Counted from the first letter of the stretch, positions 29,703 to 34,672 are shown. The stretch is DNA of 64,000 nucleotides from an uncultured Acidobacteriota bacterium (GCA_964400605.1 CAYNUH010000002.1:58866-122865), one strand, 5' to 3'. Made by a program: numbers and translations. Notes: generated by a model from the sequence alone, not told the origin.

Positions 29703-30725
29703 ATGGCCATCAGGATCGGTCTGATGGGTTTCGGCAGGATCGGAAGGAACATCTTCCGGATCCTCTACCAGAGGGACGACGTGGAAGTGGCGGCGATCAG
29801 CGACATCGCCGACCATCGGGCTCTCGAATACCTGCTCAAGTTCGACACGGTGATGGGCCGCTTCCCGGACGAGGTGACCGTCCGGGACGGTTCCCTGATC
29901 GTGGGCGGGCGATCCATCCCTATGCTCTCGGGACGGGAGCCGGGGGACGTGGACTGGAAAGCCCACGGCGTGGACATCGTGGTCGAGGCCACGGCCCGCT
30001 ACCGCTCGCGCGCGGAGGTGCAGAAGCACCTCGACTCCGGCGCTCGCCGCGTCATCCTCTGCGTCCCTCCGGTGGACGAGCCTGACATCACCGTCGTCAT
30101 CGGCGTGAACGACCATCTCCTCACAGCGCGCCACCGGATCATCTCCAACGCCTCCTGCACGTCGAACTGCCTGGGTCCCATCGCGAAGGTTCTCCACCGC
30201 GCCTTCGGCATCCGGCAGGGGTTCGTGACGACCATCCACGCCTACACGAACGACCAGCGTCTCGCCGACGTGCCCGCGGACGACATGCGCCGCTCCCGGG
30301 CGGCGGCCGAGAATATCATCCCTACCGACACCCGGGCCCACGAGCTGGTGATGAAGCTGATGCCGGAGCTGGCGGGAAGGCTCGGGGGCGTGGCGATGAA
30401 CGTGCCTGTGCCGGACGGATCGGTGGTCGATCTGGTGGTTCAGCTCGAGAAGCACGCCACCGTCGAGGCGGTCAACGAAGCGGTCCGCACGGCGGCCGCC
30501 TCCGACCTCGCCGGCATCGTGGAGTACGAGACCGACCCCATCGTCAGCAGCGACGTGGTGGGAAACCCGCACTCCGCGGTCTTCGATTCGCTGGGCACGC
30601 AGATGATCGGCGGCGACCTCGTGAAGGTCCTCGCCTGGTTCGACAACGGCTGGGGGTATTCGAGCCGCGTGGTGGATCTCGTCAGGAAGCTCTCGTCGCT
30701 GCCGGCGGGGGAGGTAAGGCAATGA
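29703..30725 (+). CDS. gap: type I glyceraldehyde-3-phosphate dehydrogenase (paralog 1)
   Basis: NGFGRIGR, ASCTTNCL (active-site Cys), and WYDNEWGYS (here WFDNGWGYS). Confidence 0.85.
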   Translation: MAIRIGLMGFGRIGRNIFRILYQRDDVEVAAISDIADHRALEYLLKFDTVMGRFPDEVTVRDGSLIVGGRSIPMLSGREPGDVDWKAHGVDIVVEATARYRSRAEVQKHLDSGARRVILCVPPVDEPDITVVIGVNDHLLTARHRIISNASCTSNCLGPIAKVLHRAFGIRQGFVTTIHAYTNDQRLADVPADDMRRSRAAAENIIPTDTRAHELVMKLMPELAGRLGGVAMNVPVPDGSVVDLVVQLEKHATVEAVNEAVRTAAASDLAGIVEYETDPIVSSDVVGNPHSAVFDSLGTQMIGGDLVKVLAWFDNGWGYSSRVVDLVRKLSSLPAGEVRQ

Positions 30726-31723
30726 CCACGCGAGTCGCCATCAACGGGTTCGGCCGGATCGGCCGCAGCGTCTACCGGATCCTGTCGGACCGCCGGGATA
30801 TGGACGTGGTGGCCGTCAACGACGTCTCGGATCCCGCCACGTTGGCCTACCTCTTGAAGTACGACACCGTGATGGGGACGTTCGAGAAAGACGTCTCCCT
30901 GAAGGGCGGGGCCCTGCGCGTCGGGGAGGTGGAGTCTCGCCTGCTCAGCGAAAAGGACCCGGCGCGACTGCCCTGGAAGGACCTCAAGGTGGACGTGGCC
31001 GTTGAGTCCACGGGGAGGTTCCGCAAGAGGGCCGAGATCGCCCGGCATCTGGAGGCGGGCGCCCGGAAGGTCGTCCTCACCGTCCCCGCCAAGGACGCCA
31101 TCGACGCCACGGTGGTGATCGGGGTGAACGACGGCGCCCTCCGCCCCGAGCACCGGATCGTCTCCAACGCCTCCTGCACGACCAACTGCCTGGCGCCGGT
31201 GGCCATGGTGCTCGACGACGCCTTCGGGATCGAGCGCGGGCTGATGACCACGGTCCACGCGTACACCAACGACCAGCGGCTCGCGGACGTCCCGCACAAG
31301 GACCTGCGCCGCTCGCGCGCCGCGGCGGAAAATATCATCCCGACGACCACCGGGGCGGCCTCTGCGGTGGGGCAGGTCCTTCCGCGCCTGGCCGGACGGC
31401 TCGACGGGATGGCCATGAGGGTGCCCGTGCCCGACGGATCCCTCGTGGACCTGGTGGCGCTGCTCCGGCTGCGGGCGGACAGGGGCGCGGTGAACGAGGC
31501 CATGAAACGCGCGGCCGAGGGGCCGCTCCGGGGGATCCTGGAGTACAGCACCGTCCCTCTCGTCTCCAGCGACATCATCGGAAACCCCCACTCGTCGGTC
31601 TTCGACTCCCTCTCGACACAGACGGTGGGCGAGAACGCCGTCAAGGTGATCTCCTGGTACGACAACGAATGGGGCTACTCGTGCCGGGTGGCCGATCTCA
31701 TCGGCAAACTCGCCGCGCTGTGA
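30722..31723 (+). CDS. gap: type I glyceraldehyde-3-phosphate dehydrogenase (paralog 2)
   Basis: ATGA overlap with paralog 1. INGFGRIGR, SNASCTTNCLAP, WYDNEWGYS. Confidence 0.85.
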   Translation: MTTRVAINGFGRIGRSVYRILSDRRDMDVVAVNDVSDPATLAYLLKYDTVMGTFEKDVSLKGGALRVGEVESRLLSEKDPARLPWKDLKVDVAVESTGRFRKRAEIARHLEAGARKVVLTVPAKDAIDATVVIGVNDGALRPEHRIVSNASCTTNCLAPVAMVLDDAFGIERGLMTTVHAYTNDQRLADVPHKDLRRSRAAAENIIPTTTGAASAVGQVLPRLAGRLDGMAMRVPVPDGSLVDLVALLRLRADRGAVNEAMKRAAEGPLRGILEYSTVPLVSSDIIGNPHSSVFDSLSTQTVGENAVKVISWYDNEWGYSCRVADLIGKLAAL

Positions 31724-31750
31724 CGCCGGCGCCGGGCCGGACGGAGGCGC

Positions 31751-32191: not shown

Positions 32192-32192
32192 C

Positions 32193-33365
32193 GTGAAACG
32201 CGAGGCGCTCGTCGCCTGGCTCGAGGATCGGCTCGGCTGGAGCGCCCTCGTCGCGTTCGCACGCCACAAGACAGTCCCCGTGCACCGCCACAGCCTCTGG
32301 TACTACCTGGGAGGGATGACCCTCTTCTTCTTCCTGGTCCAGGTGGGGACCGGGATCCTGCTGATGCTCTACTACAGGCCGAGCGCGGACGAGGCGTACG
32401 AGTCGGTCCAATTCATCGTGACGCGGGTCTCCTTCGGCTGGCTGATTCGGTCGATCCATTCGTGGAGCGCGAACCTGATGATCGGGGCCGCGTTCATCCA
32501 TCTCTTCTCGGTCTTCTTCCTGAAGGCCTACAGGCGACCCAGGGAGCTCACGTGGGTGAGCGGCGTCATTGTGCTCTTCCTGGCGATGGGGTTCGGCTTC
32601 TCGGGGTACCTGCTTCCGTGGAACACGCTCGCGTACTTCGCGACCAAGGTCGGAACGGACATCGCCGGCTCGGTTCCCCTCGCGGGGGAGTGGGTGCTGC
32701 GGTTCCTGCGGGGCGGGGAGAGGGTGACCGGAGGGACGCTGTCGCGGTTCTACGGCTGGCACGTCGCGATCCTGCCCGCCGTGACCACGACGGCGCTGGG
32801 GCTGCATCTCCTGCTGGTCCAGAAGCACGGCATGAGCGTGCCGCCCTCCGAGGAGGGGAAAGCCGGATCGCCGCCGATGCCTTTCTTGCCCAACTTCCTC
32901 CTCAGGGACCTCTTCGGCTGGGCGGTGGCGCTCGCGATCCTGGCGGCGCTGGCCGCTTACGCGCCGTGGGAGCTGGGGGCGAAGGCCGACCCGTTCGCGC
33001 CCGCCCCCGCCGACATCAGGCCCGAGTGGTACTTCCTGTTCATGTTCCAGACGCTGAAGCTCGTGCCCGGAGGCGAGATCGCCGGCGTCGAGTACGAGGC
33101 CATCGCCATCCTGGTCTTCAGCCTCGGAGGGGCGCTGCTCCTGCTGGTTCCGTTCCTCGACCGCGGAGAGGCGTCAGGGACGGCGAGCCGCGTCATCACC
33201 GCCGCCGGATGGGCCGCCGTGATCTACATCACCGGCATGACGGCTGTCGGCTACGAGTCGCCGTGGCCCGTCGTCGCGCCGGGGGTGGCTCTGGCGCTGG
33301 TGTGGTTGATCGCAGCCCGCCGCGCCGCCGCGGACACTCCAACAGGTGGAGGCCCGCGAGCATGA
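32193..33365 (+). CDS. cytochrome b (fused b6-like plus subunit-IV-like) of the Rieske/cyt b complex
   Basis: About 8 TM helices; heme-ligating His pairs in helices B and D; PEWYFL motif. Confidence 0.8.
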
Positions 33366-34672
33366 TGTTCGCCGGCCGCAGACTCCCGTCCGCCCTTCCG
33401 GCGATCCTGAGCGCGTGGGCCGCGGCCGTGGCGGCCCCGGCGGGCGCGGGCGGCCAAGGCGCAGCCCGGGAGGAACCCTGCGTCTCGTGCCACCTGGAGC
33501 TGGCGGAGATATCCGGGGTTCTCGCCGCCCCCGCGCAGAAGTGGGCCGACGATGTCCACCGCTCGAAGGGCCTCACCTGCGTCTCCTGTCACGGAGGAGA
33601 CCCTTCTCCCGGCGCCGCGCGGGACGCCGATGCGGCCATGGACCCGACGAAGGGGTTCGTGGCGCGGCCGCCCCGCGCGCGTCTGGCCGAGTTCTGCGGC
33701 CGCTGCCATTCCGACGCGAAGTACATGAAGACGTTCAACCCCGCCGCGCGGGTGGACCAGGTGACCGAGTACCGCACGAGCGTGCACGGCGTCCGCAACG
33801 CCGCAGGCGACGAGAAGGTCGCCACCTGCATCAACTGTCACGACGTGCATGGGATCCAGCCCGTGTCGAGCCCGCGATCGCCCGCGTACCCGAAGAACGT
33901 GCCCGCCACCTGCGGCAAGTGCCACGCGGACGCCGCGCTGATGGGCTCGTATGGACTCAGGGGAAACCCGCTCGCCGATTGGATGAAAAGCACGCATGCC
34001 GAGGCGCTCCTGGAAAGAGAGGACCTTTCCGCCCCTGCCTGCAACGACTGCCACGGCAACCACGGAGCAGCGCCGCCCGGGGTGGCCTCGCTCGCCTTCG
34101 TGTGCGGTCAGTGCCATGCCCGAGAGGCGCTGCTCTTCAGAGACTCGTTCAAGAAGAACCTCTTCGACGAGACGGGGGCCTCGGAGTGCGTGACCTGTCA
34201 CGGCAACCACGAGATCCACCATCCGACCGACAGGCTGATCGGGACGGGCGCCGGGACCGTCTGCTCCCAGTGCCACGCGCCCGGAGACGAGTGCGACAAG
34301 CAGAGCGTGCAGATCCGGAAAACCATCGACGGCTATGCGCGCGCGCTCGGGGAGGCCCAGGACGTGCTCGGGCGCGCCGAGCGGGCCGGGATGGAGGTGA
34401 GCGGGGCCATCTTCACCCTCAAGAAGGAGGGGATCAGCGGTCTCGTGGAGACCCGGGCGCTCATCCACTCCTTCGACGCTGAGCGCCTGACCCGCAGGGC
34501 GGAAGAGGGATTGAAAGTGGCCTCCGACGCGCGCCGCCAGGGGGATGATGCCCTCGCGGAGGTTCAGTACCGGCGCAAGGGGCTGGCCGTGAGCCTCGTA
34601 TTCATCGGCGTCCTGCTGGCGGGGCTCTTCCTGAAGATCCGGGACGTGGACCGCCGTCGAAGCGCCCCCTAG
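33362..34672 (+). CDS. multiheme c-type cytochrome (9 CXXCH) with a C-terminal TM anchor
   Basis: ATGA overlap with cyt b. Signal peptide; nine CXXCH motifs (2x CVSCH, then CGRCH, CINCH, CGKCH, CNDCH, CGQCH, CVTCH, CSQCH); C-terminal hydrophobic helix. Confidence 0.8.

Follow-up and report, generated by a model that had tools for sequence, protein, structure and literature searches.

Glyceraldehyde-3-phosphate dehydrogenase (GAPDH) ranks among the most studied of all enzymes, and its bacterial forms are generally treated as homotetramers. Here we describe a five-gene arrangement in a stretch of 64,000 nucleotides from an uncultured Acidobacteriota bacterium (GCA_964400605.1, CAYNUH010000002.1:58866-122865; the whole stretch is henceforth referred to as the window), in which two tandem GAPDH-family genes, gap1 and gap2, precede the genes of a Rieske protein, a cytochrome b and a multihaem cytochrome c (the bc module). 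With moderate confidence we favour a reading in which gap1 would be a non-catalytic or catalytically crippled partner of gap2, and the bc module a separate unit, co-transcribed with the pair in this genome and without a mechanistic link to it.

The obvious reference for both paralogs is type I GAPDH (EC 1.2.1.12, NCBIfam model TIGR01534, PDB 1GD1), with which gap1 shares complete Gp_dh_N and Gp_dh_C domains, the fold, the GxGxxG motif, Asp32, Cys149 and His176 (throughout, residues are numbered after the Geobacillus stearothermophilus enzyme, PDB 1GD1, which also served as alignment reference). The clade of gap1 departs from it by the change of Arg231 to Asn, the replacement of Gly209, the substitutions N6M, S119C, Y311F and E314G, and a Cys149 that is dispensable. 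That a GAPDH may consist of two paralogs is shown by the chloroplast A2B2 enzyme GapA/GapB (PDB 2PKQ, 7Q53), whose chains were among our PDB matches. There, each of the two subunits is catalytic and accepts NADP, and the C terminus of GapB is prolonged by a regulatory segment; in the window, by contrast, one partner has a degenerate active site, both are of the NAD type, neither has an extension, and a heteromer would be predicted from the genes. In Epd/GapB of gamma-proteobacteria (TIGR01532), likewise a GAPDH paralog, the 207-212 loop is altered too; it contains D-T-K in E. coli Epd and, at the matching place, D-T-R in gap1. Epd keeps Arg231 and Cys149, whereas gap1 scores 317 bits against the 530 of that model, belongs to a clade without Arg231 and often without Cys149, and has no pyridoxal-pathway context.

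On the respiratory side, the anammox clusters Kuste4569-4574 and Kustd1480-1485 and the Geobacter Cbc/ExtP-type clusters share with the window a PetC-anchored Rieske protein, a b6-like cytochrome b whose His residues have the 13/14 spacing, the PEWY motif and a membrane-anchored multihaem cytochrome c (PMC12954380). For anammox Rieske/cytochrome b complexes with an NAD(P) oxidoreductase subunit, a coupling between the oxidation of quinol and the reduction of NAD(P)+ has been proposed (PMC12954380). The window cytochrome, however, has nine haems and not six or eight, and its operon contains neither an NAD(P) oxidoreductase nor an HAO-like subunit. Against the Geobacter ExtP model its cytochrome b reaches 212 bits, under the cut-off of 290, and the b6 and subunit IV parts lie in one gene, which in relatives is further fused to the cytochrome c. 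The module differs from b6f proper (of the cyanobacterial and chloroplast or the Firmicute type) in lacking the haem c_i cysteine, in its unsplit b6/subunit IV and in having a nonahaem cytochrome c in place of cytochrome f.

Two unequal GAPDH paralogs in tandem

All five open reading frames (ORFs) are rich in GC at third codon positions, as genuine genes of the window sequence typically are, and the GC content, about 70% throughout the window, is uniform across the five-gene region. The coordinates of these genes and of the flanking features are collected in Table 1. An earlier reading of this DNA (hereafter the sequence-only reading) had described two full-length GAPDH genes, put at 55–60% identical by eye and sharing an ATGA overlap. 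Both genes indeed carry Gp_dh_N and Gp_dh_C over their full length (Pfam), the 4-nt ATGA overlap is seen in the ORF coordinates, and the computed protein identity of 57.7% (about 67% at the DNA level) falls within the estimate. A recent duplication or an assembly duplication of the gap genes, for which near-identical copies would be expected, is ruled out by these values. The spacer that had been placed before the Rieske gene measures exactly 27 nt. The further statement that each following gene overlaps the previous one by 1–4 nt holds for cytochrome b and cytochrome c (4 nt, ATGA) and not for the Rieske gene and cytochrome b: the Rieske stop occupies 32189-32191 and the earliest possible cytochrome b start is the GTG at 32193, leaving a 1-nt gap.

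Table 1. Features of the five-gene region and its flanks (positions in the window)
Feature	Position	Strand	Description
HEAT-repeat protein	25576-26367	-	Pfam HEAT_2/HEAT; last gene of the divergent Nfn-like operon; also in L007, L166, L169
Ferritin/rubrerythrin-like protein	26399-27031	-	Weak Pfam Rubrerythrin match; PRK12775 positions 797-998, 134.6 bits
Fused NfnA/PyrK-like and NfnB/GltD-like NAD(P) oxidoreductase	27049-29592	-	Pfam DHODB_Fe-S_bind, Fer4_20, Pyr_redox_2; divergent from gap1
Sigma54-type (-24 GG / -12 GC) promoter-like site	29626-29640	-	CGGCACGGCCTTTGCC, towards the Nfn-like gene
TAnACT -10-like box	29667-29672	+	About 30 nt upstream of gap1
gap1	29703-30725	+	340 aa, ORF call
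gap2	30722-31723	+	333 aa, ORF call
gap2-Rieske spacer	31724-31750	+	27 nt, GC-rich, GGAGG Shine-Dalgarno
Rieske gene	31751-32191	+	146 aa, ORF call
Cytochrome b gene	32193-33365	+	GTG start, 390 aa
Cytochrome c gene	33362-34672	+	436 aa, ORF call
CcmF/NrfE-family haem lyase	35780-38032	-	Pfam Cytochrom_C_asm and CcmF_C; TIGR00353 262 bits, below cut-off; convergent, end of block

The best match of both paralogs was 1GD1 (gap2 392 bits, gap1 360 bits). Their scores against TIGR01534, the type I GAPDH model with a curated cut-off of 367.2 bits, were 425.3 bits for gap2 and 375.0 bits for gap1, which thus clears it by only 8 bits. Aligned to 1GD1, gap2 is canonical at all catalytic, phosphate-site and NAD-site residues, and is therefore predicted to be a canonical phosphorylating GAPDH of type I and of the NAD type. 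The gap1 protein of the window carries the substitutions R231N, G209R, N6M, S119C, Y311F, E314G, H190A and K191D; it retains Cys149 and His176 (present in gap2 as well), Thr179, Arg195, Asp32 and the GxGxxG motif. The phosphate-site set formed by Thr179, Arg231, Thr208-Gly209 and Arg195 is thus complete in gap2 and fails in gap1 at positions 231 and 209. We take Thr208-Gly209, in the phosphate-binding loop, to serve in the binding of glyceraldehyde 3-phosphate (G3P), and positions 6, 119, 311 and 314 to belong to the nicotinamide/NAD pocket. PMC12041015 places Arg231 in the Ps site and, for the E. coli enzyme, in the Pi site as well; these sites bind the phosphate of the substrate and inorganic phosphate. 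The functional assignments of Arg231, Thr179 and Ser148 follow that source, and those of the other positions follow general GAPDH knowledge.

In the cofactor region both paralogs have Asp32, Val187 and Pro188, with Ile (gap1) or Val (gap2) at residue 33. Asp32 and Pro188 are NAD-type determinants of GAPDH, and in NADP-accepting enzymes (Bacillus GapB, cyanobacterial Gap2, chloroplast GapA) these determinants are lost or re-oriented (Asp32; Leu187/Pro188 to small or polar residues; Thr33/Ser188). The retained pair of residues leads us to reject the NADP type for either paralog. The erythrose-4-phosphate (E4P) type is rejected too: against the Epd models TIGR01532 and PRK13535 (cut-offs 530 and 539 bits) gap1 scores 316.8 and 315.1 bits and gap2 328.6 and 340.9 bits, far under both cut-offs. 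The suggestion of the sequence-only reading that one paralog might be NADP- or E4P-specific, to be checked at residues 32–35, is accordingly not supported. An ArsJ-associated GAPDH can also be discarded, since the paralogs score 326 and 354 bits against NF033735 (cut-off 450) and Pfam searches of the neighbouring window genes revealed no transporter (arsJ) gene adjoining the pair.

A distinct clade of gap1-type proteins

To place these substitutions we used an alignment of 86 gap1-type and 80 gap2-type proteins against 1GD1. Position 231 is Asn in 80 of the 86 gap1-type sequences and Arg only once; position 314 is Gly in all 86, position 6 Met in 80, position 311 Phe in 85, and position 209 is never Gly, whereas the gap2-type proteins are canonical at each of these positions in 79–80 of 80. 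Cys149 is kept in 54 gap1-type proteins and lost in the other 32, where it is replaced by Asn (18), Ser (6), Ile (4) or Val (4). The losses are scattered among gap1-type lineages, and the variety of replacements suggests that the nucleophile disappeared several times independently. Other residues are kept (His176, Ser148, Thr150, Arg194, Arg197 and Asn313 in 86/86), as are the cofactor determinants: Asp32 is found in 85/86 gap1-type and 80/80 gap2-type sequences, and Pro188 in 86/86 and 78/80. The window gap1 shows every signature residue of the clade (Asn231, Gly314, Met6, Phe311 and a residue other than Gly at 209) in addition to the ATGA overlap with gap2.

A phylogeny of the two GAPDHs had been proposed by the sequence-only reading. 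In our neighbour-joining tree, with a single outgroup, gap1 falls into a separate gap1-type clade with a bootstrap of 100/100, and gap2-type proteins cluster with 1GD1. Mean identity is 64% within the gap1-type, 72% within the gap2-type and 48% between them. Nonsynonymous to synonymous substitution ratios (dN/dS) against close relatives were 0.13–0.24 for gap1 and 0.13–0.25 for gap2, approximate values given that dS (0.8–1.0) is near saturation; gap1 thus appears to be under purifying selection despite the losses of Cys149 in its clade. Constraint on the gap1-type combined with the lack of Cys149 in 32 of 86 members points to a conserved function of the clade that would have no need of the nucleophile.

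We interpret the gap1-type, as defined by this analysis, as an ancient sister clade of GAPDH and a degenerate paralog family. Neither NCBIfam nor Pfam has a dedicated model for it, only the generic GAPDH model being matched, and its members currently carry either the name 'type I GAPDH' or that of a 'GAPDH NAD-binding domain-containing protein'. In the openly searchable full-text literature we found neither a GAPDH paralog without Arg231 or Cys149 nor tandem bacterial gap genes, and a term search of a 2025 review of the GapDH superfamily returned no mention of such a paralog.

The gap1-gap2 pair is widespread

The distribution of the pair was followed through one genome per GTDB species, taking the best 80 gap1 loci and identifying their neighbours by tblastn with the window proteins. 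These loci come from Acidobacteriota (Thermoanaerobaculia, Holophagales), Myxococcota, Acidimicrobiia, Oligoflexia/Bdellovibrionales and one Kiloniellaceae metagenome-assembled genome (MAG). A gap1-type gene lies directly 5' of a gap2-type gene, always in this order, in 74 of the 80; the exceptions are contig ends, two frameshifted gap2 genes and one locus with the genes 8 kb apart. In two long-read MAGs (L014, 11134-12135; L052, 11002-12003) the gap2-type gene is spread over several frames beside an intact gap1, probably an effect of assembly indel errors and not a sign of pseudogenes. When the loci from an exact look-up were included, 78 paired loci were available for intergenic distances; about 50 of them show a distance of -4 nt and 14 one of -1 nt. 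Such overlaps in most loci indicate that translational coupling is the rule for the pair.

Outside the clade of the window, the gene found 3' of the pair is that of phosphofructokinase (PFK) in 35 loci, starting about 35 nt after the pair in Thermoanaerobaculia and related MAGs (e.g. L021, 12000-13217, within L015-L085), and alpha-amylase and sugar ABC-transporter genes often lie 5' of it. These neighbours place the pair in sugar catabolism. Neither the bc module nor the Nfn-like gene that flanks the pair in the window (Table 1) adjoins it in the 74 genome loci outside the close clade, which rules out a general association of the pair with either. The gap1-gap2 pair is thus an old and widespread two-gene unit, its duplication ancient and not tied to the respiratory complex.

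A self-contained Rieske/cytochrome b/nonahaem cytochrome c module

Pfam identifies a PetC anchor (TM_PetC) and a Rieske domain in the first protein of the module, Cytochrome_B and Cytochrom_B_C in the second and multihaem c families in the third. The boxes that bind the [2Fe-2S] cluster of the Rieske protein are CTHLDC (residue 89) and CACH (residue 107), and its PetC-type anchor is a transmembrane helix at residues 15-33. In cytochrome b, which combines b6 and subunit IV in one gene, the haem ligands are His89/His103 and His190/His205, with the 13/14 spacing of the b6 type; the PEWY Qo motif is at residue 277 and there are about eight hydrophobic segments. No cysteine occurs in the whole 390-aa protein, so that haem c_i should be absent. 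By motif count and hydropathy profile, the cytochrome c has exactly nine CXXCH motifs, the number given in the sequence-only reading, a signal peptide and a C-terminal membrane helix. Domains and motif count therefore agree with a b6f-like Rieske/cytochrome b complex with a nine-haem partner, in which the nonahaem protein appears to replace cytochrome c1/f. Curated models remain distant: the closest for cytochrome b, all below cut-off, are cytochrome b6 (226 bits, cut-off 325) and the Geobacter ExtP model already mentioned, and the Rieske protein scores 67 against the PetC cut-off of 250.

Relatives of the nonahaem protein are present in at least 512 confirmed stretches of soil metagenomes, the best 80 of which were used to survey the neighbourhood of the module. 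All three bc genes occur in 45 of these 80 loci, in the order Rieske-b-c (31) or c-Rieske-b (14), and at least 2.2 kb of upstream sequence is available in 20. Not one of the 80 has a gap gene beside the module and only one weak Nfn-like match was seen, so that a general association of the module with GAPDH is also ruled out; nor did the openly searchable full-text literature yield GAPDH genes linked to Rieske/cytochrome b clusters. In three relatives (L001, 6074-8503; L167, 2912-5308; L169, 10624-13026) cytochromes b and c are fused into one protein of 798–809 aa that still has nine CXXCH motifs, and they are separate in the window (32193-34672) and in L172. The signal peptide of the window cytochrome c aligns with a transmembrane segment of these fusions, and at its tail the window cytochrome b is longer by about 21 residues. 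The module is best described as a putative self-contained b6f-like quinol:cytochrome c oxidoreductase with a multihaem exit wire, which would pass electrons from the quinol pool into the periplasm along the multihaem protein.

Two states of the gap-bc junction

The junction between gap2 and the Rieske gene was found in five of seven independent relatives: L001/L002, L166, L167, L169-171 and L172. It is absent from L005/L006 (gap1 81% identical to that of the window) and L007 (71%), in which the Nfn-like gene still stands beside the pair. Motif scanning of the 27-nt spacer in the window found no sigma70-like promoter, terminator-like sequence or sigma54 site, the signals for which the sequence-only reading had asked one to look between gap2 and the Rieske gene. 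The spacers of L166 (17 nt, gap1 identity 81%) and L167 (1 nt, 75%) are equally devoid of signals, and lengths of 27, 17 and 1 nt leave no room for a sigma54 signal. In L172 (79%) the spacer extends to 140 nt and contains a GC hairpin followed by T5, resembling a terminator. The longest spacers each carry an exact sigma54 consensus: TGGCATGCCCTCTGCT in L169-171 (73%, 169 nt; L169, 10050-10065) and TGGCACGGGCTCTGCT in L001/L002 (72%, 211 nt; L001, 5536-5551). The exact pattern used (TGGCAY-N5-YTGCW) occurs only twice in the 64-kb window when both strands are considered, and within the window gap1-gap2 genes sigma54-like sites appear only at two mismatches (30930, 31455), which we judged no better than chance. 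Upstream of gap1, the TAnACT box was not called by a strict sigma70 scan; variants of it (TAGACT, TACACT, TAAACT) occupy the equivalent position in L001, L007, L166 and L169.

Given a 27-nt spacer without promoter or terminator signal, the five genes of the window are probably co-transcribed from the gap1 promoter region, as judged from their spacing, and in some relatives the bc module is probably an independent unit driven by sigma54. The tight fusion seen here would thus represent one of two states within the clade. The claim that the GAPDH genes are fused into an operon with the complex holds as far as gene order in five of seven relatives and the signal-free spacer are concerned; it does not extend to the modules as such, which are separately widespread and in three relatives are divided by a sigma54 site or hairpin. 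Likewise, the comparison of neighbourhoods that had been proposed shows the junction recurring and, outside one acidobacterial clade, each module on its own. The odd operon therefore appears real in this genome and recurrent in its clade, yet best seen as a juxtaposition of two modules each widespread elsewhere. A shared transcript would link them through co-expression of central catabolism and respiration and not through a shared mechanism: we found no sign that GAPDH and the bc complex are linked physically or mechanistically, and we infer that no direct link exists. A striking 'glycolysis plus bc complex operon' is in this sense a caution and not evidence for a new coupling mechanism.

The junction is part of a larger block. 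On one side, the divergent Nfn-like protein scores 576 bits against TIGR01316 (cut-off 472) and 1039 bits against PRK12778 (cut-off 1103), and its sigma54-type site is found as the same element at the same place in five relatives (L001, L007, L166, L167, L169). The ferritin-like gene adjoins the Nfn-like gene in L001, L005, L007, L166 and L169; between them, as separate genes, the two supply the architecture that is found as one 'trifunctional' protein in NCBIfam PRK12775. L169 shares both flanks with the window, i.e. HEAT, ferritin-like and Nfn-like genes on one side and CcmF on the other.

A proposed partner subunit and its alternatives

Obligate adjacency and coupling, a retained fold and dinucleotide motif, and the losses at the phosphate site and at Cys149 together suggest that gap1 is a non-catalytic or weak partner subunit. 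In such an arrangement gap2 would be the working NAD-dependent phosphorylating GAPDH, and gap1, presumably made in equal amounts through translational coupling, would join it, most likely in a mixed tetramer, as a non-catalytic or catalytically crippled member. This mixed tetramer may tune GAPDH activity or its response to NAD(H), and we accordingly propose for gap1 the role of a conserved partner, possibly a heteromeric regulatory subunit, and not that of a second GAPDH isoenzyme. The stricter version, in which gap1-type proteins are pseudo-subunits of an obligate heterotetramer with the co-translated canonical GAPDH, forming a regulated, asymmetric enzyme, is an idea that we take seriously while leaning somewhat against it; it would cover Acidobacteriota, Myxococcota, Acidimicrobiia, Bdellovibrionota/Oligoflexia and some Alphaproteobacteria. 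A parallel is offered by GMPPA/GMPPB, in which, according to PMC11228364, a non-catalytic paralog still binds ligand and regulates the active one. The likeness lies in the proposed logic alone, fold and pathway being unrelated, and serves as an analogy only.

The main rival would make gap1 a working dehydrogenase that acts on another substrate, such as a non-phosphorylated or differently phosphorylated aldehyde, at least in lineages like this one that keep Cys149 and His176, so that the pair would stand for two sequential or parallel activities instead of a catalytic plus non-catalytic heteromer. The window gap1 and its closest relatives all retain Cys149, His176, Ser148, Thr150, Asn313, GxGxxG and Asp32, the replacements at 231, 209, 6, 119, 311 and 314 are so strongly conserved that they resemble a re-designed pocket more than decay, and the dN/dS of about 0.13–0.24 also speaks for it. 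We nonetheless find this unlikely, as the same signature is common to the members without a nucleophile, which implies a clade function independent of thiohemiacetal chemistry, and among GAPDH-superfamily models only the generic GAPDH model matches. Much less probable is a split of the paralogs by cofactor or substrate (NAD versus NADP, G3P versus E4P) into glycolytic and gluconeogenic enzymes like Bacillus GapA/GapB. Two co-expressed genes both over the TIGR01534 cut-off, next to an Nfn-like NAD(P) oxidoreductase gene, might invite it; yet Asp32 and Pro188 are retained almost throughout both clades (their role as determinants being general knowledge), the Epd scores are far too low, Arg231, which G3P- or E4P-using enzymes of the family would be expected to need, is missing from gap1, and many gap1 orthologues have no Cys149.

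At the level of the locus, the GAPDH pair, the divergent Nfn-like gene and the bc module could be thought to form a single redox unit modelled on the anammox complexes, which unite Rieske/cytochrome b, hexa- or octahaem cytochrome c and NAD(P) oxidoreductase (PMC12954380). The block HEAT-ferritin-like-Nfn-like, divergent from gap1-gap2-Rieske-cytochrome b-cytochrome c and closed by the convergent CcmF, is kept in L169 and in part in L001 and L166. But the Nfn-like gene is encoded on the other strand and has a conserved sigma54-type site to itself, its product has no strong membrane segment, and at the L005 and L007 loci, where there is no bc module, the gene still accompanies the gap pair; moreover, the best 80 metagenome bc loci have no gap gene and a single weak Nfn-like match, and gap pairs in 74 other genomes have no adjoining bc module. 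The locus hence probably falls outside the anammox-type NAD(P)-reducing class, and we regard a common redox unit as very improbable. An artefact, be it a tandem duplication of recent date, a copy created in assembly or a chimera of unrelated contigs, is next to inconceivable: the paralogs are too divergent, GC is uniform across the region and the same junction is present in five independent assemblies from different samples.

Some observations weigh against the partner-subunit reading that we prefer and against the separateness of the bc module. The complex of gap1 with gap2 is itself a prediction from sequence, and the window gap1, with Cys149 and His176 and a TIGR01534 score over the cut-off (375 versus 367), could still be an enzyme. 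The junction persists over a range of about 72–100% gap1 identity, with spacers of 27 nt or less in three genomes; this is above what random gene order would give and may reflect a selective advantage of co-expression or a functional link.

If gap1 is indeed a conserved, coupled partner, it would bring a new level of regulation to a key step of glycolysis in phyla that abound in soil and sediment, and with an obligate heterotetramer, if true, a heteromeric GAPDH would for the first time be seen outside photosynthetic lineages. There is also a practical side: because TIGR01534 labels gap1 as a type I GAPDH, metabolic reconstructions from MAGs of these phyla over-count GAPDH isoenzymes, and the mislabelled gene may give rise to invented NAD/NADP or glycolysis/gluconeogenesis splits.

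Other features of the window

Directly downstream of the bc module, a Cys-rich ORF (CxxC...C...CxxC; 34669-35265, minus strand) without Pfam match is convergent with the cytochrome c gene and overlaps its stop. A sigma54-like site with one mismatch (35072-35057, minus strand) lies inside this long ORF, about 50 nt 5' of an internal ATG at about 35007, which suggests that the real Cys-rich gene may be only some 112 aa long. A second multihaem cytochrome c (54475-55488, minus strand) shares 26–28% identity with the nonahaem protein; a sigma54-like site (55507-55522, minus strand) lies shortly 5' of its gene, and an exact sigma54 consensus (55580-55595, plus strand) is located about 380 nt 5' of an ilvE-type aminotransferase gene (55976-56920, plus strand). 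Motifs of the sigma54 type are enriched in the window as a whole (12 matches with no more than one mismatch, where shuffled sequences give 4.0 +/- 1.9), which also encodes two NtrC-type sigma54 activators (23297-24646 and 38040-39530) with adjacent histidine kinases.

Further upstream, at 18708-21618 (plus strand), genes for a GcvH-like protein, then a 4Fe-4S protein of the HmcB/HybA kind and a membrane subunit resembling HmcC/NrfD lie directly 5' of a HAMP histidine kinase and sigma54 activator; this set looks like a second quinone-interacting redox module. The preceding region (11757-18404, plus strand) groups genes of central metabolism, for an acetyl-CoA hydrolase/transferase, a two-subunit 2-oxoacid:ferredoxin oxidoreductase and a MaeB-type malic enzyme-phosphotransacetylase fusion. 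A metabolism linked to ferredoxin would suit the neighbouring Nfn-like enzyme. Finally, the segment at 45716-53604 (minus strand) encodes a TPR-CHAT protein (1162 aa), a Ser/Thr kinase that carries DUF4384, an ECF sigma factor and a histidine kinase coupled to protoglobin.

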